Source: an uncultured Hyphomicrobiales bacterium
GTDB lineage: Bacteria; Bacteroidota; Ignavibacteria; Kapaibacteriales; UBA2268
Length of the DNA: 64,000 bases
Assembly (NCBI GenBank): GCA_964454975.1
Contig: CAYVVD010000008.1
Span: forward strand, 52,915-116,914
Direction: 5' to 3'
The translations under genes and the position numbers were made by a program. This document shows positions 8,693 to 61,060 of the stretch, piece after piece. The first letter of the stretch is position 1. Each line of letters opens with the position of its first letter. Under the pieces are notes generated by a model. That model made no database searches. It was not told where the DNA came from and worked only from the letters and a program-made list of their open reading frames with translations.

Positions 8693-9583
8693 ATGGCGGA
8701 ATTAAATCTACAGGGTACTTTCCCGGCCCTTGTTACCCCTTTTAACGAGGACCTCTCAATTGATTTCGGAGCGTTCGAAAAGCTGATTGATTTCCAGATT
8801 GAAAACGGCGTGGAAGGCATTGTTGTATGCGGCTCCACAGGCGAAAGTGCTACACTTTCCGCCAAGGAAAAAACATCGCTGTTTGTTAAAGCTGTCGAGC
8901 ACGTTGACGGCAGGATTCAGGTTATTGCAGGAACCGGTTCCAACAATACGCAGGATAGCATTGCCCTGACAAAAATCGCACAGGAGCATGGCGCTGATGC
9001 AGTACTGCTTGTCACACCTTACTACAACAAACCAACGCAGGTCGGCCTCTTCCAGCACTTCCTGGCGATTTCCGAGCATGCCGATATTCCTCAGATCATT
9101 TATAACGTACCGGGCAGGACAGCTACAAACATCAGCCCGGAAACACAGATTAAAATTGCAGAGGAATGCAACAATGTTGTTGCAACAAAGGAAGCTTCGG
9201 GTAACCTCGAGCAGATGATGTACATTTTGAAGTATGCACCCGAAGGCTTCTCTTTGCTTTCAGGCGATGATGTGCTCACTCTGCCAATCATTTCTGTAGG
9301 AGGAACAGGTGTTATATCTGTAATTGGCAATTACGCACCGAAAGAATTCGGCAGTTGTGTTCGAAATGCACTCGATGGCAACTGGCAGGAAGCGCTCGAC
9401 CTGCACTACAGGCTGTTCGACTTGATGCAATTAAACTTTGTTGAGACAAATCCCGTGCCGGTGAAAGCCGCTCTTGCGATGTTGGGTATGATGAATGAAT
9501 ACTACAGGCTGCCAATGATACCAATGAACCCGGAAAACAAAGGTGCCCTCAGAAAAGCAATGGGCAGAGCCGGCTTGTTATAA
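8693..9583 (+). CDS. dapA: 4-hydroxy-tetrahydrodipicolinate synthase
   Basis: DapA hallmarks (TPF, GVEGIVVCGSTGE, YNVPGRT). The ATG at 8693 is preferred over the upstream TTG at 8678. Confidence 0.93.
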   Translation: MAELNLQGTFPALVTPFNEDLSIDFGAFEKLIDFQIENGVEGIVVCGSTGESATLSAKEKTSLFVKAVEHVDGRIQVIAGTGSNNTQDSIALTKIAQEHGADAVLLVTPYYNKPTQVGLFQHFLAISEHADIPQIIYNVPGRTATNISPETQIKIAEECNNVVATKEASGNLEQMMYILKYAPEGFSLLSGDDVLTLPIISVGGTGVISVIGNYAPKEFGSCVRNALDGNWQEALDLHYRLFDLMQLNFVETNPVPVKAALAMLGMMNEYYRLPMIPMNPENKGALRKAMGRAGLL

Positions 9584-46520: not shown

Positions 46521-48614
46521 TTATTTTATTGTCAGGCTAAAGTCCGAATTTTGAGCACATTTGAAAGTAACTAATTCTATGGAGCAGTCATCAGGTTTAT
46601 ATGGAGTATAAGTATATGAAGTACTTGTAATCAAATCACATATTTCGCTGCCTGATTTTGAAATCATCCAACCATTTCCAACATTTGAACCACTTAATAG
46701 AATATTACTTAATTTAGCAATTGAATGGCCCTGTCCAATATCTTCGCCTTCATATTCAGTTTTAGTAGTAACTTCAAAGTCAAAATCTACAATTTTCGAA
46801 GGATTTACTTCTTTGTCAAATTCAATCCGCAATTTCCTGTTCATAATATGATTCATCTTTGAGTATGTAACTGTCTCAGTAGCTGTGCCTTCGAGAATTT
46901 TACCTTTCATTTCAAGCATCATTTTTTGAGCGCCATAGGCCATAAGTTCAACACTTGTATTGCTGCCATTTTTGCAATGGGTTATATATTCCGCATCAGC
47001 GCCTAAATAAAAAGTAATTTCTCGTTGCATCTTAGGTTGAAGGGTAAAATGCAAATCGTAACCATCCTGGTAGTTTGCGCCATCCCAAATTTCTAATTCC
47101 ATACGTGCGTCGAATTTCTCAGTCGAGACAAATAGTGAGTTTAAATCCATTTCCAATTTAAAGTTATTAGTTCCGGGACCTGAATTATATGTAGTTGATT
47201 CATCAAAAAGATTTTCACCGGTCTCCTGGTTATAAATTCTAAGATTTAAACTAAGTGTTTTGGAATTTTGCTCCGCATTATATATTGGTAAATCAAATCT
47301 CAAATATTTAGTGGAATCAGGCAATACGTCGCATACATCAGTATTTGGGAACACCCATTTATAACCATGTTGTGCGTTTTTGTCATATTCCATAGCAATA
47401 GAATAAGTTTTGCCGGCTGAAGATTCAACAATAAAAGATAACTCCCCTAATGTCTTATTAATCGGCATCCCAAATGTGTGCAAAGCTCTGCCGGATGGCA
47501 CAACTTTTTTAGGAAATAAAATTTGGTAGGCTTCAGTTAATGATTTTTCTTTCATCAGCCAATCAAATTCTTTCCATTCATACATAGATTCGCCACTAAT
47601 ATTTTGTGGATTGTGAATTAACAATTTAACACTAATCTTAGCAGCAGTGACTAAGTCAATTTCATATCCAACAACGAGAACTGCATGCCCGCCAACTCCG
47701 GGATAATCAAGACTGAAAACTATCGGTTTGTCTTCGTCAAGATTTTTAATAATTTCATCTAACATATTTGTTTTTGATACGAAAGTAGATGTTTCGCATT
47801 CCACATTACCATAAATACTCATCGCAGCAGGGAGCCACTTTTTGAATGAGTATAAGCCAAGGCCTTCGTTTAGAGTTGAATGCTCCATGTATTTCACGAA
47901 ATCAATCACTCTGACATCTTTATTTCGGTTACCTGCAGCTGTGTATGCACGTGCAAGCATGGTAGCACATGTAGCCCAGCAACTTCCTTCTGGTTGCTCG
48001 TAATAGGGCATTTGAAGTATCTTCTTTTGGGGAGCATCTGATAGTTTTTCACGGTCAGCCCAACTCAAATTCAATCGTGTATATCTATTACCTGATTGAA
48101 TTGTGTTGACATTACCCACTTTGGGAGAGCTACTTGGCGCTTTGAATTTGCTTGTTAATAATCCGCTTGAAGCATCATAATCGAAATCTATAAGTTCACC
48201 ATAAATTTGTTCCTGGGAGTCCTCCGGAGAATAAAATAATAGAACAATATCGTCTTTTACTAAATCCGGCTTAAGTATTAAACTAAAACCAAATGTAATC
48301 TCACCTTCCATTTTGGAAAAATCAAAAACCAAATCCTTGCTGCTGTTGAAGTATCTTTCATCATCAAGCAATGCAATTGTAATTTTTTCGTTAGAAATCC
48401 CGGAATTGTCTTCCGGGTTGACTTTGAAAGTCGTTCCATTAGTAAATTCAAGAATAATCTCGCTACCTTTGTAATCAGCGCTTTTCTCCTCGGCAATTTT
48501 CTCTTTAATTGTGTTGTTGTTCGGCTCTTCGTCATCATTTCCAATTATTCCCTCACAAGACATCAAAGTAATGAGCATTGAACTCATCAATAAAAACTTA
48601 ACATAAATATTCAT
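46521..48614 (-). CDS. Large lipoprotein with a central papain-fold (peptidase C39-like) cysteine-peptidase domain
   Basis: Signal peptide with a lipobox (LMSCEG). A catalytic-Cys box (PEGSCWATCATMLA) and a His box (GGHAVLVVGYE) are typical of the Peptidase_C39_2 fold. Beta-rich regions flank the core. Confidence 0.6.
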   Translation of the reverse strand: MNIYVKFLLMSSMLITLMSCEGIIGNDDEEPNNNTIKEKIAEEKSADYKGSEIILEFTNGTTFKVNPEDNSGISNEKITIALLDDERYFNSSKDLVFDFSKMEGEITFGFSLILKPDLVKDDIVLLFYSPEDSQEQIYGELIDFDYDASSGLLTSKFKAPSSSPKVGNVNTIQSGNRYTRLNLSWADREKLSDAPQKKILQMPYYEQPEGSCWATCATMLARAYTAAGNRNKDVRVIDFVKYMEHSTLNEGLGLYSFKKWLPAAMSIYGNVECETSTFVSKTNMLDEIIKNLDEDKPIVFSLDYPGVGGHAVLVVGYEIDLVTAAKISVKLLIHNPQNISGESMYEWKEFDWLMKEKSLTEAYQILFPKKVVPSGRALHTFGMPINKTLGELSFIVESSAGKTYSIAMEYDKNAQHGYKWVFPNTDVCDVLPDSTKYLRFDLPIYNAEQNSKTLSLNLRIYNQETGENLFDESTTYNSGPGTNNFKLEMDLNSLFVSTEKFDARMELEIWDGANYQDGYDLHFTLQPKMQREITFYLGADAEYITHCKNGSNTSVELMAYGAQKMMLEMKGKILEGTATETVTYSKMNHIMNRKLRIEFDKEVNPSKIVDFDFEVTTKTEYEGEDIGQGHSIAKLSNILLSGSNVGNGWMISKSGSEICDLITSTSYTYTPYKPDDCSIELVTFKCAQNSDFSLTIK

Positions 48615-49072
48615 TAGTTACCTCAGAATGTAAAATTAAATCCGTTGAAATTATGAAAGTTCGCTCAATTAAAAAAGCAAATAATACAATCGTATGCTTT
48701 TACTAAGCCTTTGAAAAATAAAGACTAACGCCATTGTCCGATTAATATTGTTCCCCTGTGCTCTTTTACACGACGGCAATGAGATTAACTCAAAATTCAA
48801 GAGATATTTAGTTTTTGAATTTCAAAAAAGAACAGAATTTGGATATTAATTTTTGATATTATGACAATGAAAAAAGTTGTCGGGGTTAGTCAGTATAAGT
48901 ATTTAGCTGCTTTGCAAGAAACTGACCCAATTATATTATTGAAACAGGTTAATTGGAGACAATCCTCTGATTTGGCAACAGGATTGGAGTTGTCATAATC
49001 CGTATATAGAGGAATTTATGCTTACAATATCTGAGATATACTTACGATTCTAATGCTATTCCCAAAGATTAA

Positions 49073-50014
49073 ATGTATAATCGATTTATGATGAAAAGTA
49101 ATATTATAAAAGGTCTTTTAACAGTACTGCTCATCACGGGGTGTAATTATATTGAGGATGAATCCGAGAAGAAGGTGGTGGACTTTACTTTGAAACGAAC
49201 ACAAAATGCAATAGATTCTAATGATTATAACCCGTCAGAAAAATTAAAAGTAGCTATTTCTGCTATAGTATCGCCCCGGGAGACATTTATTTACTATGAA
49301 GAATTACTTGACTATATATCAAAAAAGGTAAATAGCCCAATAGAGATGAAGCAAAGAAAAACGTATAGTGAGGTGAATCAGATGCTGCTGAACAATGAAG
49401 TAGACATGGCATTTATTTGTTCAGGAGCTTACATAAAAATCAATGAAACGAATCAGGTAGAATTATTGGCTATACCCGTTTGCAATGGTAAACCATACTA
49501 TCAGGCATATATTATCACCAATAATCAATCAGGTATAGAAAAATTTGATGATCTTGAAGGTAAATCCTTTGCATTTACCGACCCCCTTTCAAACACAGGA
49601 AAACTCTATGCCGAGAAACGACTGCACGAATTGAATTTGTCTTCTGAAACGTTTTTTTCTTCGACCATGTATACACACGCACATGATATTTCCATCCAGT
49701 TGGTTTCAAAAATGGTTGTTGATGCAGCTACTGTTGACGCGCTGATTTATGATTATTTAGAAAAATTCTATCCTGAACGGGTTAAAAATATCAAAATAAT
49801 CGAAAAGTCAGAGTATTTTGGTATACCACCGGTTGTGGTTCCGGCTTCAGTTCCTGACGAGTTAAAAAAAGAATTAAAATCAATTTTTCTTTCCCTTCAT
49901 AAAGATTCAATTGGAAGTAAAATTTTGGATAAATTACTGATTGATCGTTTTATCGAAGGAAACGATGAGAATTACGACAGTATTCGTGAAATGCAAAAAT
50001 TAGTCAAGCAATGA
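49073..50014 (+). CDS. Periplasmic solute-binding-protein-like lipoprotein (PhnD/SsuA-type fold), the likely sensor partner of the downstream histidine kinase
   Basis: Lipobox (ITGC) and a type-2 periplasmic-binding fold. Its stop overlaps the histidine kinase start. Confidence 0.65.
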   Translation: MYNRFMMKSNIIKGLLTVLLITGCNYIEDESEKKVVDFTLKRTQNAIDSNDYNPSEKLKVAISAIVSPRETFIYYEELLDYISKKVNSPIEMKQRKTYSEVNQMLLNNEVDMAFICSGAYIKINETNQVELLAIPVCNGKPYYQAYIITNNQSGIEKFDDLEGKSFAFTDPLSNTGKLYAEKRLHELNLSSETFFSSTMYTHAHDISIQLVSKMVVDAATVDALIYDYLEKFYPERVKNIKIIEKSEYFGIPPVVVPASVPDELKKELKSIFLSLHKDSIGSKILDKLLIDRFIEGNDENYDSIREMQKLVKQ

Positions 50015-51516
50015 AAAATCCTTTGTATATACCCCTATTCTGGAAATTCTCTATTGCAATTACCGGAACAGTTGTTGTATTTGGGCTTATCAATTTATAT
50101 TTTACGAATTATGCTGTATATGATTTATTCGAAAGCGAGCTAATCAGACATGGTAAAATAACTGCCACAAGCATTGCTGAAAGAAGTGTAATTCCAATTG
50201 CTTATGGGGATTTAGCTGCATTAGATTTTATTGTAACCGACCAAAAGAAGATTGATCCGGGCATTGCTTACTTATTTATTATTGATAAAGACGGGCAATT
50301 AATAGCCCATACATTTGATCAAACTGTTCCACCTGAACTTTTAAAAGCGAACAAGGCATCTATAAACGATTCCGTTTACACTGTTATAATTGAACCAAAA
50401 AGCAATCCTAATATCAAGATAAGGGATCTGACGGTGCCAATTATGCAGGGCAATCTGGGTGTTGTTCGTATTGGGATGTTCGAAGAAAACTTTTTAAAAA
50501 GTATTCACAAAACCACTCGCATATTTCTCGTCATGGTATTGATTTTTTTAATTTTGGGAATACTTGGGGCATTCTTTTTCTCATATATCATAACCACCCC
50601 CTTGAAAGCAATAAATGATATTTCCGGAAAAATTGAGCTGGGTAATTTGGACTTGCAAGAGGAAGATTTTGAAGTTGTATTAAACAAGTTCGAACATGTA
50701 AAATGGAAGAATATATTAAATATTAAAGACGAGATAGATGTATTAATCAAAAGTTTTGGAGAAATGGTAACCAGGCTCAAAAGTACCTATTCTGAGCTTC
50801 AAAAAACGCAATCCTCTTTGTTCCAGTCAGAAAAACTGGCTTCTCTCGGTACTTTATCTGCAGGGATCGCCCACGAAATAAATAATCCTATTGCAGGTAT
50901 TCAGAATTGTGTAAGACGCTTACGGGAAGCCCCGGAAAACATCAGGCAAAATATTTTGTATCTGGAAATTATAGATGAAGCTCTAAAAAAAGTAGAAAAA
51001 GTCGTACGCGGGTTACTGGATTTTAGTAGAAAACCGGATATGCATTTGACCAAAACAAGTATTAATTCAATAATTGAAAATGTTTTATTATTGGTTTCCT
51101 ATAAGTTGGAAAAGTCGGGAATTGCCGTAATCAAAAATTATAATCACAATAATTTAATGGTTAATGCCAGCGCTAATCATTTTGAACAGGTAATATTAAA
51201 CTTAGTATTAAACAGCATTGATGCAATTGATGAAAAGAAGATGGCCGATCCATCTCACACTGGTGAAATCATGTTTAAAATTAAGGAGACATCAAAATCC
51301 GTTGAACTTGAGATTTCAGATAATGGAATTGGGTTGCCTAATAAACACTTAAAAGAGATTTTTAACCCTTTTTTTACAATGAAAAAAGTAAGACTCGGCA
51401 TTGGATTGGGACTGGCGGTAAGTTATAGCATTATTGAGCAACATAATGGTGAATTAACAGTCAGGGAGAACAGCATGAAAGGATTAACATTTTTAATTTC
51501 ACTTTCAAAAAATTAG
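50011..51516 (+). CDS. Sensor histidine kinase
   Basis: Two TM helices flank a periplasmic domain. Then HisKA (SAGIAHEINNP) and HATPase_c (N, G1, G2 boxes). Confidence 0.88.
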   Translation: MKNPLYIPLFWKFSIAITGTVVVFGLINLYFTNYAVYDLFESELIRHGKITATSIAERSVIPIAYGDLAALDFIVTDQKKIDPGIAYLFIIDKDGQLIAHTFDQTVPPELLKANKASINDSVYTVIIEPKSNPNIKIRDLTVPIMQGNLGVVRIGMFEENFLKSIHKTTRIFLVMVLIFLILGILGAFFFSYIITTPLKAINDISGKIELGNLDLQEEDFEVVLNKFEHVKWKNILNIKDEIDVLIKSFGEMVTRLKSTYSELQKTQSSLFQSEKLASLGTLSAGIAHEINNPIAGIQNCVRRLREAPENIRQNILYLEIIDEALKKVEKVVRGLLDFSRKPDMHLTKTSINSIIENVLLLVSYKLEKSGIAVIKNYNHNNLMVNASANHFEQVILNLVLNSIDAIDEKKMADPSHTGEIMFKIKETSKSVELEISDNGIGLPNKHLKEIFNPFFTMKKVRLGIGLGLAVSYSIIEQHNGELTVRENSMKGLTFLISLSKN

Positions 51517-51517
51517 A

Positions 51518-52879
51518 ATGATGAATAATGGAGCATATATCTGGGTTGTTGATGATGAGCGTATCGTGCGCGTATCACTGGCAGATGATCTTAGAGATGC
51601 AGGTTACAAGGTTAAAGAGTTTTCTAATGCAAATTCAGTATTGTCGGCATTCTCAACCAATGAATTTCCTGATATTATCATCACTGACATAAAAATGCCG
51701 GGTATTGACGGAGTTGAACTTTTGAAAAAAATTAAGGATATAAACAACAATATACAGGTATTAATGATGACAGCATTTGGTTCAGTCGAAAATGCTGTTG
51801 AAACTATGAAACTGGGGGCATACGACTATATCTTAAAGCCATTTAATAAGGATGAAATACTTCTTAATATCATAAAAATCCTGGAACTGAAAAAATACCG
51901 GGAAGAAAACAAATTGCTGAAAGAAAATATTGCAGCGAAGTATGACTTTACTAAATACATTGGAGATAAAAAGGATAATAACCAACTGTTCGACCTGATA
52001 AAATTGGTTGTTCATAAAGATACCACAGTATTAATAACCGGAGAAACCGGTACAGGAAAAGAATTAATAACTAATATAATTCATTATAACAGTGAAAGAA
52101 GAACGAAACCATTTATAAAAGTAAGCTGTGCCATTTTAGCCCGTGATATTTTTGAAAGTGAACTATTTGGTTACGAAAAAGGGGCATTTACAGGGGCACA
52201 GGAAAAAAATATTGGCCGCTTTGAACGTGCTCATGGCGGTACACTCTATTTGGACGATATTGACGATATTCCCCTTGAATTACAAGTGAAATTATTGCGG
52301 GCACTGGAAGAGAGGGAAATAGAGAGATTAGGAGGTGCTCAAACTATTAAAATTGATGTCAGGCTTATTGCTTCTACCAAAAAAAATCTTCTCCAACTTG
52401 TTCAGAAGGGCAATTTCAGAGAAGACCTTTACTACCGTCTTAATGTTTTTCCCATCAACCTTCCTCCATTGCGGGAACGTCATGATGATATAAAAATTCT
52501 GATAGAACATTTCATGAGGCATTTTTCAACTAATCCTGATATTTCTATTACTTCTGAAGCTCTGGATGTACTGCTTAATTATCCTTTTCCGGGTAATGTC
52601 AGGGAGTTGAGAAATATCATGGAGCGACTGGTCCTGTTGGCTCCTGGTGGAATTATCGAATTAAAGCACATACCAGGTGAACTCATTAACCGCGAACTGA
52701 TTCATCCATTCCTTTCTGTTGGTACTAAACCGCTAAACGAAATGTTGACTGAATATGAATCAATCATGATCAGGCAAGCATTGCAAAAAGCGAATAACAA
52801 CAAATCCCGTGCTGCAGATTTGTTGGGTATTCCTGCTACTACACTTTACTCCAAAATAGATAAACTAAAAATTTCATAA
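51518..52879 (+). CDS. Sigma54-dependent response regulator (NtrC/Fis family: REC, AAA+ sigma54-interaction and HTH domains)
   Basis: REC domain, then an AAA+ region with GETGTGKE Walker A and the ESELFGYEKGAFTGA motif (GAFTGA is the sigma54-contact loop). A C-terminal Fis-type HTH follows. Confidence 0.92.
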   Translation: MMNNGAYIWVVDDERIVRVSLADDLRDAGYKVKEFSNANSVLSAFSTNEFPDIIITDIKMPGIDGVELLKKIKDINNNIQVLMMTAFGSVENAVETMKLGAYDYILKPFNKDEILLNIIKILELKKYREENKLLKENIAAKYDFTKYIGDKKDNNQLFDLIKLVVHKDTTVLITGETGTGKELITNIIHYNSERRTKPFIKVSCAILARDIFESELFGYEKGAFTGAQEKNIGRFERAHGGTLYLDDIDDIPLELQVKLLRALEEREIERLGGAQTIKIDVRLIASTKKNLLQLVQKGNFREDLYYRLNVFPINLPPLRERHDDIKILIEHFMRHFSTNPDISITSEALDVLLNYPFPGNVRELRNIMERLVLLAPGGIIELKHIPGELINRELIHPFLSVGTKPLNEMLTEYESIMIRQALQKANNNKSRAADLLGIPATTLYSKIDKLKIS

Positions 52880-52899
52880 TTAGTATTGTATTCTAAAAA

Positions 52900-52948
52900 C
52901 TACGAGATATCATTTATTTCGACGAAATCTCGTAGGTTTTTTATTTAT
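52900..52948 (+). terminator. Rho-independent terminator after the sigma54 regulator gene
   Basis: CTACGAGAT...ATCTCGTAG 9-bp stem with an inner 6-bp stem (ATTTCG/CGAAAT). A GTTTTTTATTTAT tract follows. Confidence 0.65.
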
Positions 52949-52992
52949 AGGGTTACCTAAACTGAATTTGATGAAAGCTTCTATGAAATGGC

Positions 52993-53009
52993 TAAATGAC
53001 TGTCATTTA
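52993..53009. promoter_or_regulatory. 17-bp perfect palindrome TAAATGACTGTCATTTA, a candidate upstream activator (enhancer) site for the adjacent NtrC-type regulator
   Basis: Perfect dyad symmetry, about 60 bp upstream of the predicted -24/-12 promoter. Confidence 0.45.
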
Positions 53010-53068
53010 ATAATTTAGCTCAATATAAATTTGCTTGCCGCATTTTATTCAACTCTTTAAAAAAAATT

Positions 53069-53084
53069 GGTATATGTATTGCCA
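53069..53084 (+). promoter_or_regulatory. Sigma54 (-24/-12) promoter candidate: TGGTATATGTATTGCC
   Basis: The GG and GC dinucleotides are spaced exactly as in the TGGCACG-N4-TTGCW consensus. It lies ~30 bp upstream of the first ORF of the oxidoreductase operon and immediately downstream of a sigma54 activator gene. Confidence 0.55.
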
Positions 53085-53115
53085 TATATCGGCTGTGAAA
53101 CAAAATGCAACTAAA

Positions 53116-54348
53116 ATGAAACTGGAAAAAATACTAAAACTGAAAAAATTGATTTGCTTATCCCTGTTAACCGGAGTATTATTACAGGGGTGTGAATACG
53201 AGATAATACCCGGCCCAAATATTCCAAGAGAAACGGCCACAGTGGAAGCCATATATATCAAGACTGCAAATCCGGTTCTTTCCAATTCTCCAATATGGGA
53301 AGAAGCTAATTTTTCTAAAATAAGTTTATCTGACTTGATTACCGGTCAATCTTATGGTGATGGATACCGTGACGCAAACGGTACTATAAATGGCATTTCG
53401 GGTTTGGGCGGAAGTAATCAAGTTGGGCTGACATTGAAAGCCATGTACGATGATGAATATATCTATATACTGGCACAATGGAACGATTCGACATTAAACG
53501 TTCAATATAAAAATTGGTTGTGGGAAGACAATAAATGGTTTAGGGTTGGCAATACGGATAAACTCATAATTAAGTTTGAAATGGGAGAAATGAAAGATGT
53601 ATGGCAATGGAGCGCCGCACTTACTGAACCGATTGGTTACGCAACAGATGGTATTGAGGAAGAAAATATATTTAAGCCTGATGAAGGAGAATTGACTTTC
53701 GAATATTTTAGCAACGAATTGTCAAAACCGATTTTTGAGTGGGATGGTGAGGCGCCAATATTTACAAAACCCAGTGGATTCCCTGCAATTTTAGATCCTG
53801 CTTACTTTATTGCAGGTACAACCGATTACATAGGAGATCCTTCAGTCGGCAGAGTTTTATTTAAAGAAAACTGTATTGCCTGCCATGGGAATTATGGAGA
53901 AAGTGGTTTTAACCGCGTCGGTTACGGAGAAAGTCTCGACCCAGAGAAGTTGAACAGATGGAGCAGGAAGACTATGGATGATTTTATCCGCTCCGAAACA
54001 CATGATGGGAATATTGTATTTAGTACTCTCGACTATATTGACAAAGCAAATCTATTTGCCTACATACGCGGAGCAGGAGGAATCCCGGGATTCAGATTGC
54101 AAGAACCTTCGGGGAGCGCTGCCGATGTAGAAGTACAAACATTTATATCACTTGTGAAAGTAAACCCGAAAAATACTAATTATGAAGTTATGTTTAAACG
54201 AAAACTCCAAACCGGAATGCAAGACGATGTTCAGTTTAATCCGGAAACTGTTCGAGTAAGGTTCGGTATCCTTTTATCTGATAACGACGACTTGAATTTT
54301 GTTGGAGCGTTAAATCAAGAATTAATATTCCTGGAATCAAAATACTAA
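53116..54348 (+). CDS. Heme-binding lipoprotein. It has an EB_dh/DOMON-like (DMSO-reductase type II gamma-subunit-like) domain with an embedded c-type heme motif (CIACH).
   Basis: Signal peptide with a lipobox (LLQGC). A CxxCH motif appears at NCIACHGNYG. The EB_dh-like assignment comes from overall composition and motifs only (AMYDDEYIYILAQWND ... VRFGILLSDND). Confidence 0.55.
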   Translation: MKLEKILKLKKLICLSLLTGVLLQGCEYEIIPGPNIPRETATVEAIYIKTANPVLSNSPIWEEANFSKISLSDLITGQSYGDGYRDANGTINGISGLGGSNQVGLTLKAMYDDEYIYILAQWNDSTLNVQYKNWLWEDNKWFRVGNTDKLIIKFEMGEMKDVWQWSAALTEPIGYATDGIEEENIFKPDEGELTFEYFSNELSKPIFEWDGEAPIFTKPSGFPAILDPAYFIAGTTDYIGDPSVGRVLFKENCIACHGNYGESGFNRVGYGESLDPEKLNRWSRKTMDDFIRSETHDGNIVFSTLDYIDKANLFAYIRGAGGIPGFRLQEPSGSAADVEVQTFISLVKVNPKNTNYEVMFKRKLQTGMQDDVQFNPETVRVRFGILLSDNDDLNFVGALNQELIFLESKY

Positions 54349-56793: not shown

Positions 56794-59310
56794 ATGAAAA
56801 TTCAAAGAAGAGATTTTATAAAAACATTAGCCATAGGTGGCTCCGGATTCTTATTCTTTCGACCTTCTCTGGAAGTATTTGCCGATTTTGACAATACTGC
56901 CAAGCCCATGGGCATTGAGGATGGGGAGTGGATCCCGTCAACTTGTCAGGGCTGCACTACCTGGTGTTCGGTTGAAATTTTCGTAAAAAATAAAAGAGTA
57001 ATAAAAGTTCGTGGGAACCAATATTCAAGTGTAAATCCCGGTTATGTATGTCCGCGTGGACATTTGATTCCTCAAATATTATATGATCCGGACAGGTTAA
57101 AAACACCACTAAAAAGGACAAATCCTGTAAAAAGCCGACACGCAAACCCAAAATTCATCCCTATTACCTGGGATGAAGCACTTGATGAAATCGCAGACCA
57201 GTTAATAGCACTAAGAAATAATGGGGAATCGCACAAATTCGGCGTTTTCAGGGGCAGGTACAGTTACTCGCGGGATATAATTTACACTGCAATACCAAAA
57301 ATTGTTGGTTCTCCTAACAGTATCGCACATAGTTCGAGCTGTGCTGAGGTCGAAAAATCCGGGGCATTCTTCACCGAAGGTTTTTGGGATTACCGGGATT
57401 ATGATTTGGCCAATACCAAATGCTGTGTGCTCTGGGGAGTGGATCCAACCCGGTCTAACCGACAAGTGCCCGGGGTTATGAATAGATTTCCCGACTTATT
57501 GGAACAGGCAAGCGTGATTACTATTGACCCGGTGCTCACAACGGCGGCATCAAAATCAAAATACTGGCTGCCTGTAAAACCCGGGTATGATGGTGCACTG
57601 GCTTCTGCTATTGCTCACGAAATTATGGTGGACGGATCATGGAATAAGGAATTTGTGGGTGATTTTACGGATGGAACCAACCGTTTTGTTACCGGTGAGG
57701 AAGTGAACGAAAGTTTGTTTCAGGAGAATTATAGCAATGGCCTGGTTAAATGGTGGAACCTGGAGCTAAAAGATAAACCTGCTTCCTGGGCAGCATCTGT
57801 TTGTGGCATTTCGGCTTCGCTGATAAAAAACGTAGCCATGGAAATGGCAAAAGCAGCCCCTAATGTTATTGTTTGGATGGGGCCAGGCCCCGTTATGTCG
57901 CCTAAAGGAACATACACCGCTATGGCTATTCATTGCCTCAATGGTTTGCTGGGTTCGGCTGATAACGAAGGAGGTTCCATTCGGCACGTCAAACAAAAAG
58001 TAAATGGTATACCAGATTATTCGGATTACCAGGATGATATTGCCAAAGCAGGGGCTTCGTACCAAAAAATCGACCAGAGCGGATATCTTGACCTTCCAGC
58101 ACTAAATAATGGAATATCTGGAGGCGGGGTGGTCACAAACAACGTGCCGGATGCCATGCTTGCAAAAGACCCTTACGAAATGAAAGCCGTAATTGGTTAC
58201 TGGAACAATTTTAATTTTTCCGGTACAGGTACCAGACGATGGGACGAAGCCATGGCTAAACTTCCCTTCTTTGCACACATCACTACGCATGCCTCAGAAA
58301 TGACACGCTTTGCAGACATCGTGTTGCCTGCTGCTTGTCATGCCGGTGAAAAATGGTCGTACCTGAAAAATTTTGGCAATACGTATTCAAGTATTTCTAT
58401 CCAGCAACCTCTTGTTGAGCGAATGTTTGATGTATATGCCGATGAAAATGAAATTTGCTGGAAGCTGGCTGTAAAACTCAAAGAAAAAGGCTTCTCAAAT
58501 TTATATGATTATTACTACAACGAATTTAAAGATCCTGAAACGGGCGCAAACCCAACCAACGAACATGAATTTGCCCTGTATGCCACAAAATACATGACTA
58601 AACCTTCATGGGATTTACTTCAAGGCGGATGGGATGAATTTAAGGAAAAAGGAGTGAAAAACTTCGGGCCTTATGAATTCCGCTCAAAATGGGAAGACTT
58701 TGGAACTGTCTCAGGGAAGTTTGAATTTTATTCTGAAACATTGAAAAAGGCACTGGAAGGCCATGCTGATAGACATTCAGTAACAGTAGATGAAGTTTTA
58801 GAAGCATGCAAATACGATGCCCGGGGCGAGTTGGCTTTCGTACCGCATTTTGAAGCACCCAGCCGTTGGGGCAATACCTCAGATTATCCGCTTGATTTTA
58901 TAGATGCTAAATCCCGCTTAAACAGAGAAGGAAGAAGTCAGAACAGCCCCTGGTACTATAGTTTTAAACGTTGTGATCCGGGGGATGAAAATCAAGAGGA
59001 TCTCATCAAAATCAATCCGCTTGATGCTGAAAAATATGGTATAAAAGATGGGGATATGGTCAAACTTATTACCGTGGAAGGGTTCATGGTTGGAAAAGTA
59101 AAATTGTGGGAAGGAATAAGACCCGGGACAGTGGCTAAAAACTACGGTATGGGTCACAGCGCTTACGGAAAATTTGCCTCCGAAAATTTTGAACTCGGCC
59201 TGGCCCGGGGCTCAAACAATAACGATTTCCTGCCGGCAGATTACGATAGGATATCGGGAAGTACAGCGAGAAACGGAGGTTTTACGGGAGTTAGAATTGA
59301 AAAAATTTAG
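56794..59310 (+). CDS. Molybdopterin (bis-MGD) oxidoreductase catalytic subunit with a Tat signal peptide (PsrA/ArrA/TtrA-like)
   Basis: Twin-arginine signal MKIQRRDFIKTLAIGG. The N-terminal [4Fe-4S] motif is CQGCTTWCS...CPRG (Cx2Cx3C...C), followed by MopB and molybdopterin-binding regions. Start is taken at the ATG at 56794. Confidence 0.9.
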   Translation: MKIQRRDFIKTLAIGGSGFLFFRPSLEVFADFDNTAKPMGIEDGEWIPSTCQGCTTWCSVEIFVKNKRVIKVRGNQYSSVNPGYVCPRGHLIPQILYDPDRLKTPLKRTNPVKSRHANPKFIPITWDEALDEIADQLIALRNNGESHKFGVFRGRYSYSRDIIYTAIPKIVGSPNSIAHSSSCAEVEKSGAFFTEGFWDYRDYDLANTKCCVLWGVDPTRSNRQVPGVMNRFPDLLEQASVITIDPVLTTAASKSKYWLPVKPGYDGALASAIAHEIMVDGSWNKEFVGDFTDGTNRFVTGEEVNESLFQENYSNGLVKWWNLELKDKPASWAASVCGISASLIKNVAMEMAKAAPNVIVWMGPGPVMSPKGTYTAMAIHCLNGLLGSADNEGGSIRHVKQKVNGIPDYSDYQDDIAKAGASYQKIDQSGYLDLPALNNGISGGGVVTNNVPDAMLAKDPYEMKAVIGYWNNFNFSGTGTRRWDEAMAKLPFFAHITTHASEMTRFADIVLPAACHAGEKWSYLKNFGNTYSSISIQQPLVERMFDVYADENEICWKLAVKLKEKGFSNLYDYYYNEFKDPETGANPTNEHEFALYATKYMTKPSWDLLQGGWDEFKEKGVKNFGPYEFRSKWEDFGTVSGKFEFYSETLKKALEGHADRHSVTVDEVLEACKYDARGELAFVPHFEAPSRWGNTSDYPLDFIDAKSRLNREGRSQNSPWYYSFKRCDPGDENQEDLIKINPLDAEKYGIKDGDMVKLITVEGFMVGKVKLWEGIRPGTVAKNYGMGHSAYGKFASENFELGLARGSNNNDFLPADYDRISGSTARNGGFTGVRIEKI

Positions 59311-59321
59311 GGTTTAGAATT

Positions 59322-60395
59322 ATGGCGCAAAAAGCGATGGTTATAAATTTACACAACTGCGTTGGTTGTGGTGCTTGCGGAATTGGATGCAAGGTAGAAA
59401 ATAATACCCAAATAAGCAATGATAAAACAACTTTTAATTGGGCTGATTTCCATGTGATGAACAAGGGTACTTTTCCCGATATAAAATACACTAATTATCC
59501 GGTACTTTGTAACCACTGTTCAGATGCACCTTGTGTTGATGCTTGCCCTTTGGAAGAAAAAGCCATTTTTAAGACCGCGGATGGTTTAACTATGACCAAT
59601 GAAGAGAGATGCATTGGATGTCAATCATGCATAGTAGCATGTCCGTACAGTTCAAGAGATGTTAAGAATGATGATGTTCAATATTCCATTATAAGCTTTA
59701 ATGAACCCGATGAAAAAACACATGATTATTGGGGATCATCAATCCCTTTCATCAAAAATGGTTCATCTAATCCGAAAGAAGTGGCTCAACTGACACAGAA
59801 TAAGCCTCCTTATGCAAACGATTATGAACATGAGGATTACAATGCTATAAGAAAATCGGGTGTAATAGAGAAATGTATATTTTGCGAACATCGCACCAGG
59901 AAAGGTGAACTACCGTATTGTGTGGTTGTATGCCCTTGCAATGCAAGGATTTTTGGTGATATAGATGATCCGGAAAGTGAAGTTAGTAAATTGCTGGCAA
60001 AGTATGAAGCCAAAACCTTTAAAAATAACAAAGGTGAGTTCCTTGCGAAGAACGAAAAAGGTACTCAGCCAAATGTTTACTACATACGCGATAAGGAAAA
60101 CGTAGCAACCAGTATTGTTGAAGAAAAACACATAGAAACGCAGTTTAAAGTGTATCCAAATCCTGCAAGTACGAACTTGAATATTGAAGTTTTTCTTGAA
60201 ACTAGTGATTTCATTTCAATTGATCTATATGATATTTCTGGAAGGGTTGCCTTGAATATTGTAAATAACGAGTTTACCCCTGCAGGAAACATTAAATACA
60301 ATGCGTCGCTTAATAATCTGCAATCAGGTACTTATATTTGCAGAGTACAAGTTAAAAATGTTTCTCAGGCGCAGACTGTAATTGTTACTCGATAA
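59322..60395 (+). CDS. 4x[4Fe-4S] ferredoxin-type electron-transfer subunit (PsrB/DmsB/NrfC-like) fused to a C-terminal T9SS sorting domain (CTD)
   Basis: Four Cys clusters (CVGCGACGIGC; CNHCSDAPCVDACP; CIGCQSCIVACP; CIFCEH...CVVVCPC). There is no signal peptide. The last ~84 aa (from 60141) are a type-A T9SS CTD: KVYPNPAS, IDLYDISGRVA, LQSGTYICRVQVKNVSQAQTVIV. Confidence 0.85.
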   Translation: MAQKAMVINLHNCVGCGACGIGCKVENNTQISNDKTTFNWADFHVMNKGTFPDIKYTNYPVLCNHCSDAPCVDACPLEEKAIFKTADGLTMTNEERCIGCQSCIVACPYSSRDVKNDDVQYSIISFNEPDEKTHDYWGSSIPFIKNGSSNPKEVAQLTQNKPPYANDYEHEDYNAIRKSGVIEKCIFCEHRTRKGELPYCVVVCPCNARIFGDIDDPESEVSKLLAKYEAKTFKNNKGEFLAKNEKGTQPNVYYIRDKENVATSIVEEKHIETQFKVYPNPASTNLNIEVFLETSDFISIDLYDISGRVALNIVNNEFTPAGNIKYNASLNNLQSGTYICRVQVKNVSQAQTVIVTR

Positions 60396-60400
60396 ACGTC

Positions 60401-61060
60401 ATGGTTATGAAAAAACCGGAAATTGAAGCTCAAATATTTAACCTTTATGCTGCATTATTTTGTGAACCTCAACAGGAACGTGATGATAATCTGCTAATAT
60501 TGGAGACTCTTGAATCTTTGCAATGTGAATTAAGTATGCGGTTCAGGGAGTTTACTAGCCTTAAAGAAACGTTTTTACAATTCGATCTCCAAAGTTTATT
60601 GATTGATTACACACGCATATTCATCGGGCCTTTTCACGTTGTAGCTTATCCATATAGTTCGACATACTTTTCTGAAGGGGTTAATACACTTTACAATGAA
60701 ACCACAGCATGGGTAGAGCAATTCTATAGAACCTGTGGTTTATCTTTTCAAAACACTGTGAAAGATATGCCTGATCATATTGCCGTAGAATTGGAATTTC
60801 TGTATACGATTAAGTACAATACAAACAATTTATTAAGAGAAGGGAATAAAGAACGTGGTGAGCTCTTGAGAAGAAAGTATTCTGAATTTATTAACAGTCA
60901 TTTTGGCATCTGGGCGCCCAGGTTATGTGACATGGTGGTAAGTGGAGCAAATGACACATATTATGCAGAGCTTTGCAGATGGCTTAATGGTTTTATCAGG
61001 TATTATTTAATGCCAACGATCAATACTTCGAAAACCATTGATGGATCTTGTGTTGGCTAG
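60401..61060 (+). CDS. TorD/DmsD-family redox-enzyme maturation chaperone
   Basis: 219-aa ORF with TorD-family motifs (YAALFCEPQQ, LIDYTRIFIGP, MPDHIAVELEFL). Confidence 0.78.
   Translation: MVMKKPEIEAQIFNLYAALFCEPQQERDDNLLILETLESLQCELSMRFREFTSLKETFLQFDLQSLLIDYTRIFIGPFHVVAYPYSSTYFSEGVNTLYNETTAWVEQFYRTCGLSFQNTVKDMPDHIAVELEFLYTIKYNTNNLLREGNKERGELLRRKYSEFINSHFGIWAPRLCDMVVSGANDTYYAELCRWLNGFIRYYLMPTINTSKTIDGSCVG

Follow-up and report, generated by a model that had tools for sequence, protein, structure and literature searches.

In the window analysed here, a stretch of 64,000 nucleotides (nt) of contig CAYVVD010000008.1 (assembly GCA_964454975.1), a three-gene regulatory module is followed, on the same strand, by an oxidoreductase operon, and we investigated the 236-nt spacer between the two for a sigma-54 promoter and for the site at which its activator would bind. 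The regulatory module, on the plus strand, consists of an arrX-like gene for a periplasmic oxyanion-binding protein (49073-50014; Pfam Phosphonate-bd, with a lipoprotein-like N-terminal signal), an arrS-like sensor histidine kinase gene (50011-51516; sCache_3_2, a single Cache domain, with HisKA and HATPase_c) and an arrR-like sigma-54 activator gene (51518-52879; Response_reg, Sigma54_activat, AAA_lid and HTH_8, a Fis-type helix-turn-helix). An earlier note on this DNA, made from the letters alone, had described the gene just upstream of the operon as a GAFTGA-containing sigma-54 activator paired with a histidine kinase and a binding-protein-like sensor. The domains, together with the GAFTGA motif encoded at 52181, confirm the activator, and the Pfam assignments agree with the other two.

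The best matches of the arrX-like protein in the Protein Data Bank (PDB) are ArrX (6x6b, E = 2.3e-57) and AioX (6esk, 1.8e-38), with PtxB/PhnD at 1e-18 or weaker. As described by Badilla et al. (PMC5908839), arsenite or arsenate is detected by AioX, ArxX or ArrX, and expression of the aio, arx or arr genes is then induced with the help of a kinase (S) and a regulator (R). The self-contained ligand-responsive switch proposed in the note is matched by this ArrXSR/AioXSR/ArxXSR family of arsenic-oxyanion systems (PMC5908839). Judged by their sequences, the three genes are an arsenic sensor of the ArrXSR/AioXSR type, an already known family, and the ligand is most likely arsenate.

For comparison, eight independent regulatory regions were reached via the first operon gene and the activator. 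The close set, which has the same operon, comprises the window and loci L001, L002, L005 and L019 (L019 was also seen as L004 and L020-L022). The distant set comprises L023, L024 and L025/L026, with activators 62-64% identical to that of the window and with spacers and first genes unrelated to those of the window. Overall, the activator orthologues are 62-84% identical and occur in the same three-gene arrangement, and the X-S-R order is kept in every sufficiently long related locus (L001, L002, L019-L026). The first operon gene is rare, being found in 10 clusters among 5.8 billion. Around its distant homologues in L009-L012, no GAFTGA activator is encoded within 10 kb, and these loci were set aside as uninformative on regulation. 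In L013 (Poribacteria), a strong sigma-54-like sequence, GTGGCATGCGTTTTGCTTA (8813-8831), lies 187 nt upstream of a homologue of the EB_dh protein (25% identical). Two further observations concern the activators themselves. The Walker B segment of the family (window 52300-52330) reads LYLDDI, with Asp-Asp, the usual form being Asp-Glu; in a simple pattern search LYLDDI was found in 53 of the 120 closest homologues, the rest giving no match to the pattern at all. The activator of L002 (2692-4044) is split into two open reading frames (ORFs) of 332 and 105 aa, by a frameshift or an assembly error.

The first gene of the operon (53116-54348, plus strand) encodes a lipoprotein with EB_dh (haem-b) and cytochrome c domains (Pfam), its start being taken from the lipobox. 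The deposited gene call (424 aa) starts at ATG 53074, inside the -24/-12 motif described below. Read from 53116, the product begins MKLEKILKLKKLICLSLLTGVLLQGC, a lipoprotein signal with a lipobox (LxGC) whose cysteine is invariant in an alignment of nine homologues, and this start is favoured over the deposited one because the lipoprotein signal is conserved. The gene calls of L001 and L002 are misplaced in a similar way. Further downstream on the same strand lie arrA (56794-59310), for a catalytic molybdopterin subunit with a twin-arginine signal, arrB (59322-60395), for an iron-sulfur subunit (Fer4_11), and a gene for an arrD-like chaperone of the TorD/NarJ type (60401-61060; Nitrate_red_del, E = 7.8e-24). 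The arrA product matches Shewanella ArrA (PDB 6cz7) over its full length with E = 3.8e-266, the next best match being polysulfide/thiosulfate reductase at 1e-43. It aligns with Shewanella ArrA at RGRYS, and RGRY is presumably a mark of Arr rather than Arx. What the earlier note had called the oxidoreductase operon and respiratory module is, on this match to ArrA, a respiratory arsenate reductase (arr) operon. The other genes of the window are housekeeping genes, among them glnA, tyrS and polA. The closest genome match is a metagenome-assembled genome of the Roseivirgaceae (Cytophagales). The type IX secretion tails encoded in the operon also speak for Bacteroidota, and the host probably belongs to the order Cytophagales.

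Within the spacer, TGGTATATGTATTGC (53068-53082, plus strand) carries TGG-N8-TTGC, which can also be written TGGTAT-N5-TTGC. By direct reading, the -24 GG falls at 53069-53070 and the -12 GC at 53081-53082, and the 10 nt between these dinucleotides are the canonical sigma-54 spacing, as the earlier note had stated. The candidate promoter, TGGTATATGTATTGCC (53068-53083), ends 33 nt before the likely ATG at 53116, in keeping with the ~30 bp claimed before. It lies in non-coding DNA and faces the operon, and the gene of its cognate GAFTGA activator ends upstream at 52879. From the usual sigma-54 geometry, with the C of the GC at -12, transcription would start at about 53094 (53092-53096, plus strand) and leave a leader of ~22 nt.

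The bare pattern is insignificant alone. In a search of the window, which the note had recommended for the genome, TGG-N8-TTGC was found 5 times against 10.9 expected, and is thus not enriched, while the palindrome discussed below proved unique. The chance of a hit on the right strand in the 236-nt spacer is ~0.02 (calculated by hand from the window rate). Using a sigma-54 matrix made from 176 curated sites (table S2 of PMC12316311), we obtained for the promoter a score of 11.3 bits over the informative core columns, which ranks it 9th among 127,964 window positions and makes it the sole intergenic site among the top matches.

The claim of a sigma-54-type promoter ahead of the operon is supported by the comparison across the related loci. 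Few columns are invariant in the alignment of the five close loci, and those of the GG and of the TT at -15/-14 belong to them. Two distant relatives, whose spacers cannot be aligned with that of the window, carry the full TGG-N8-TTGC: L023 as TGGATATATAATTGC, 56 nt before its ATG, and L025 as TGGTAAGTGCTTTGCA, 45 nt before the ATG (11.0 bits, rank 3 in its locus). Over the eight loci, the GG is present in all, the TT at -15/-14 in seven, and GG-N8-TT stands 45-56 nt before the ATG in seven; the best matrix match of the spacer falls at the promoter position in six. The chance of finding the full pattern in three of four independent lineages is ~3e-5 (also a hand calculation from the window rate).

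The -24/-12 match could nevertheless be fortuitous, the operon being transcribed from a housekeeping promoter or by read-through from the regulatory genes, with the activator acting elsewhere. Besides the lack of enrichment in the window, several findings favour this view and weigh against a sigma-54 promoter. The -12 GC occurs in only three of the eight loci, and within the close set only in the window, the others having TTCA, TTGG, TTAT and TTGG; most relatives score 4.6 bits or less. In L024 the corresponding sequence is TGGTAAAAATTATGAT, with no acceptable -12 element and the GG 79 nt from the ATG. The window score is itself weak, standing at about the 5th percentile (10.3 bits) of the curated sites, whose median is 16.2, on a matrix drawn mostly from Desulfovibrio and E. 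coli, and eight window positions, all in coding regions, score higher. Neither the window nor 378 kb of the related loci yielded an ORF with an RpoN box. The -7 motif of the Bacteroidota housekeeping sigma factor is TAnnTTTG, and the spacer holds a match to it, the rival promoter TAAATTTG (53026-53033, plus strand, direct reading).

Against this stand the following points. At the aligned position, the four close loci do not keep the match TAAATTTG. In seven of the eight loci the spacing between GG and start codon is fixed, with the full consensus in the two unalignable relatives, at the chance level given above. A dedicated GAFTGA activator is encoded directly upstream in every sufficiently long locus, and a hairpin with a T-run lies between the activator gene and the operon. 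Among the curated sigma-54 promoters are some with a variant -12 element, such as E. coli glnH (TGGCACGATTTTTTCAT, with TTTCA) and pspA (TTGT), and a variant of the TTTCA type is seen in L001. Published XSR systems use RpoN promoters (PMC5908839, PMC6011840), and sigma-54 regulons have been reported in Bacteroidota classes including Cytophagia (PMC12316311). We therefore regard a fortuitous match as improbable; a sigma-54 promoter is probably the best reading of 53068-53082. A scan with the sigma-70 consensus, which is unsuited to Bacteroidota, gave no more hits than shuffled sequence did.

The earlier note had also pointed to a perfect 17-bp palindrome ~60 bp upstream of this promoter, where enhancer-binding proteins usually bind. 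The palindrome, TAAATGAC-T-GTCATTTA (TAAATGACTGTCATTTA), does lie there, at 52993-53009, with 8-nt arms, a 1-nt centre at ~-93 and a gap of 58 nt to the motif. Its role as the enhancer of an otherwise genuine sigma-54 promoter has some points in its favour: the symmetry is perfect (8+1+8), no second copy occurs in the window even with 3 mismatches allowed, the distance to the promoter is typical for enhancer-binding proteins, and the palindrome extends to an imperfect dyad of 31 nt (52986-53016) and has another, imperfect palindrome 23 nt upstream of it. Shuffled spacers give at least one such palindrome in only 4.4% of cases (P ~ 0.044). In the window as a whole, 7 distinct palindromes have arms of 8 nt or more (9 in the raw count against 5.3 expected), and the one in the spacer is only marginally non-random.

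The comparative data, however, do not agree with this role. The activator DNA-binding region is 71-74% identical to those of L019 and L001, the two closest relatives, so a functional site should be recognisable there. The 12-mers of the palindrome are at background in the four close and the three distant orthologous spacers (summed best matches 30-35 against 33.5 ± 1.9), and the aligned positions in the close relatives keep at most a loose CTGA(C) and are not palindromic in the same way. This absence of conservation despite similar activators argues against the palindrome as the enhancer. Nor does it resemble the footprinted site of AioR (PMC5335332), and the element that is conserved in all eight loci is a different one, described below. 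The palindrome is thus probably not the docking site of the activator, and we consider the enhancer role proposed for it quite unlikely.

Probably it either arose by chance in AT-rich DNA or is a site, specific to this lineage, for another protein; in the latter case it could serve a second regulator. Some 10 of its 17 positions match the E. coli Fur box, a likeness that was set aside because the palindrome is not conserved. The second palindrome, ATTTGATGAAAGCTTCTATGAAAT (52966-52989, 80%), and a short direct repeat (AAATGGC at 52985 and AAATGAC at 52994) could form, with the 17-bp palindrome, a composite site for some protein. A further perfect 8+1+8 palindrome, TTTTTGAA-T-TTCAAAAA, is found at 48812-48828, in the 458-nt spacer between arrX (49073) and a divergent peptidase-like gene on the minus strand (46521-48614).

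The element conserved in all loci consists of two small dyads placed shortly after the activator gene. In the window, unit 1, ACGAGATATCAT (52902-52913; CGA-N4-TCA), and unit 2, ACGAAATCTCGT (52922-52933; CGA-N4-TCG), are exactly 20 bp apart, at ~-187 and ~-167 from the predicted start, and both are candidate sites for the ArrR-like activator. All eight loci have two CGR-N4-YCG dyads 20 bp apart (19 in L025), located 10-40 nt past the activator stop codon. The units are ACGAAATCTCGT and ACGAAATCCCGT in L019, ATCGGAAAACCGAT and ATCGGAAAACTGAT in L023, TTTCGTAATTCCGAAA and TTTCGATAATCCGAAA in L024, and ACGGTTTTCCGA and ACGGTTTTCCGT in L025. Scanning for pairs with at least 11 of the 12 core positions and a spacing of 19-21, we found one pair per locus at this place in 8/8 loci, with one extra pair in L025, inside a coding region; shuffled sequence of 64 kb yields 1.65 pairs. 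The distance from the dyads to the -24 GG further downstream is 126-170 bp over the eight loci and 143-146 bp within the close clade (calculated by hand). A k-mer conservation scan of the close clade likewise detected the dyad/hairpin region and nothing else, the gapped promoter being invisible to this method.

A DNase I footprint is available for AioR of Agrobacterium tumefaciens GW4, which protects GTTCGGATTTCCGAAC, with the core CGG-N4-CCG (PMC5335332). The units of L024, L023 and L025 match this footprint at 12, 12, 11, 10, 11 and 10 of 16 positions. The CG-N6-CG dyad of the activators appears to be common to several phyla. The dyads are the better enhancer candidate than the palindrome, and they would be bound by the ArrR-like activator. 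For the window, this assignment depends on the equivalence of position and architecture, because the window units have diverged from the AioR box. No further dyad sites were found upstream of arrX, and there is therefore no sign of autoregulation.

The same two units, together with a T-run (GTTTTTT), also form an inverted repeat (52895-52941, plus strand) that is a possible intrinsic terminator of the activator gene. The window hairpin has a folding energy of -13.3 kcal/mol (z = -3.4), contains GC pairs and is followed by the T-run. A consensus terminator scan made no call at 52895-52941, the loop of 12 nt exceeding the 8-nt limit of the scan, and a search of the spacer against Rfam returned only a sub-threshold chance match over the hairpin and no riboswitch such as Moco. 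Folding is good in the window, L001, L005 and L025 (-13 to -31 kcal/mol, L005 reaching -30.7), weak in L019 and L023, and no better than shuffled in L002 and L024, so that hairpin strength is not conserved. The T-run follows the dyads in six of the eight loci and is missing in L023 and L002. The locus with the split activator, L002, is also the one with the least hairpin-like dyad region.

These properties raise the question of whether the promoter is real and the dyads are merely the terminator of the activator gene, the enhancer being another sequence or no fixed site being needed. The position of the element, 20 nt past the stop codon, its fold and its T-run all fit such a role, and in the close clade the element is a good terminator, which could account for its conservation there. 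The window units match the AioR footprint at only 5/16 and 7/16 positions, keeping the CG-N6-CG frame alone, and unit 1 deviates from the common pattern (TCA for TCG). Moreover, the dyad pattern was defined after inspection of these same sequences, and the published degenerate AioR motif is undiscriminating, being matched at 13 or more of 16 positions at hundreds of places in AT-rich DNA.

A terminator does not account, however, for what is kept where the fold is not. L002 and L024 fold like shuffled sequence and L023 has no T-run, yet their two units remain 20 bp apart. The stem of L019 carries three substitutions, each of them unfavourable to the hairpin, yet CGR-N4-YCG is kept in both units. 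The units of L019, L023, L024 and L025 are direct copies of one small palindrome and not the arms of one long inverted repeat, and those of the distant loci match the AioR footprint as given above. We judge a role as terminator only to be unlikely; the dyads may well double as terminator and enhancer.

Taken together, these data lead us to favour, with somewhat better than even confidence, a sigma-54 arr promoter under the control of the ArrXSR switch acting through the dyads at 52902-52933. The similarity to ArrX is the sole ground for the ligand assumed in this reading, a further point against it. An arsenic oxyanion, most likely arsenate, would be bound by the periplasmic ArrX-like protein, which would signal to the ArrS-like kinase; the kinase would autophosphorylate and pass the phosphate to the ArrR-like activator. 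Phosphorylated ArrR would then oligomerise on the dyads, ~167 and ~187 bp upstream of the start, and, by DNA looping and ATP hydrolysis, would open the closed complex of sigma-54 RNA polymerase at 53068-53082, so that transcription would run from ~53094 into the arr operon, with its first gene at 53116. The dyads would also form the hairpin that is the probable terminator of the activator transcript, and the palindrome at 52993-53009 would lie within the looped spacer. No site of the integration host factor (IHF) type was detected in the spacer. An intrinsic bend in place of IHF was considered and rejected: between dyads and promoter the eight loci show no AA/TT periodicity of 10-11 bp, with 75% of shuffles reaching the same value.

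The genes controlled by this putative switch have features of their own. At its C-terminus, the arrB product has a type IX secretion sorting domain (Por_Secre_tail, E = 1.6e-11), as in L001 (14020-15039) and L019-L022 (L019 14570-15646). ArrB has no signal peptide of its own, and ArrA has the twin-arginine signal; this combination suggests that ArrA and ArrB are exported as a folded pair, to be displayed on the cell surface. The arr operons of the close clade have no NrfD/ArrC protein, the usual membrane anchor, whereas NrfD is present in L023-L025. Between 53116 and 56688 are encoded the EB_dh and cytochrome c lipoprotein, a protein of 126 aa with no Pfam domain, a DUF5777 outer-membrane beta-barrel, a YceI protein and an OB-fold (tRNA_anti-like) protein, and these accessory proteins could provide an electron path across the outer membrane. 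The same accessory genes are found near the EB_dh homologue of L007 (36% identical). That the switch controls an undescribed, surface-displayed kind of arsenate reductase is a tentative idea, which we hold to be possible but doubtful. If true, it would mean an extracellular enzyme able to attack mineral-bound arsenate and fed by an outer-membrane electron path. We found no account of a surface-displayed or type IX-tailed arsenate reductase in the literature searched.

The enzymes of the distant loci differ in their relation to that of the window: the one in L023 is ArrA-like (48% identity), while the one in L025 is 20% identical to ArrA. In L025 (5011-17356, and in L026), the X-S-R module adjoins a divergent cluster of ArsR, ArsP and thioredoxin genes. 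Downstream of the module are encoded a Porin_O_P porin, an FeS protein, NrfD and a molybdoenzyme, the last being longer than 950 aa and lacking RGRY. This molybdoenzyme may belong to a different family of arsenic-related enzymes, with the canonical TGGTAAGTGCTTTGCA as promoter.

Accepting the favoured reading, the XSR/sigma-54 arsenic logic established for proteobacterial arsenite oxidases would extend to arsenate respiration in Bacteroidota, and the locus would supply an enhancer and a promoter, both concrete and testable, with which to construct arsenate reporters or to predict which metagenomic genes are induced by arsenate. The analysis also makes two corrections, one to a gene start that overlaps the promoter and one to the assignment of the enhancer. 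The regulatory arrangement is of an expected kind and no surprise; the type IX-tailed ArrB downstream is more unusual.

AioR and ArxR belong to the AtoC-type sigma-54 activators and act at RpoN promoters, and epsilonproteobacterial ArrR proteins are of this type too (PMC5908839); XSR modules activate aio and arx from such promoters through an upstream activator site (PMC5908839, PMC6011840). The closest parallel in regulation is AioXSR-aioBA of Rhizobium sp. NT-26, Agrobacterium tumefaciens and Herminiimonas arsenicoxydans. It is alike in its PhnD-like sensor, kinase and AtoC/NtrC-type activator, encoded just upstream of a molybdoenzyme operon and in the same direction, in its -24/-12 promoter in the spacer (NT-26 aioBA, TGGCACAACGATTGCA; PMC6011840), and in an activator dyad upstream of that promoter, the footprinted GTTCGGATTTCCGAAC (PMC5335332), with which the window units have the CG-N6-CG skeleton in common. 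Unlike AioXSR, the window system has ArrA/ArrB, for arsenate reduction, as its enzyme and a sensor nearer to ArrX than to AioX; its host belongs to the Bacteroidota, those of AioXSR to the Proteobacteria. AioXSR has a single described site, whereas the window has two tandem dyads, diverged to CGA...TCG and overlapping a terminator-like hairpin.

The NtrC-type promoters glnAp2 and glnHp2 of E. coli likewise combine -24/-12 elements with tandem activator sites located over 100 bp upstream, and glnH tolerates the same TTTCA variant of the -12 element as is seen in L001. They differ in their sensor input, and neither an IHF-type site nor phased A-tracts were detected in the window spacer. The best structural relative of the window sensor is ArrX of Chrysiogenes arsenatis (6x6b), which binds arsenate and belongs to an ArrXSR module encoded beside arrAB (PMC5908839). 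Unlike the window activator, the ArrR of C. arsenatis is of the CitB type and lacks an AAA+ domain; upstream of arrAB in that species, no RpoN promoter was found (PMC5908839). A 2018 survey placed arrXSR in Firmicutes, Epsilonproteobacteria and Chrysiogenetes and did not list Bacteroidota, and an AtoC-type ArrR has been reported only from Epsilonproteobacteria (PMC5908839); the window adds an ArrR-like AAA+ activator in a member of the Bacteroidota.

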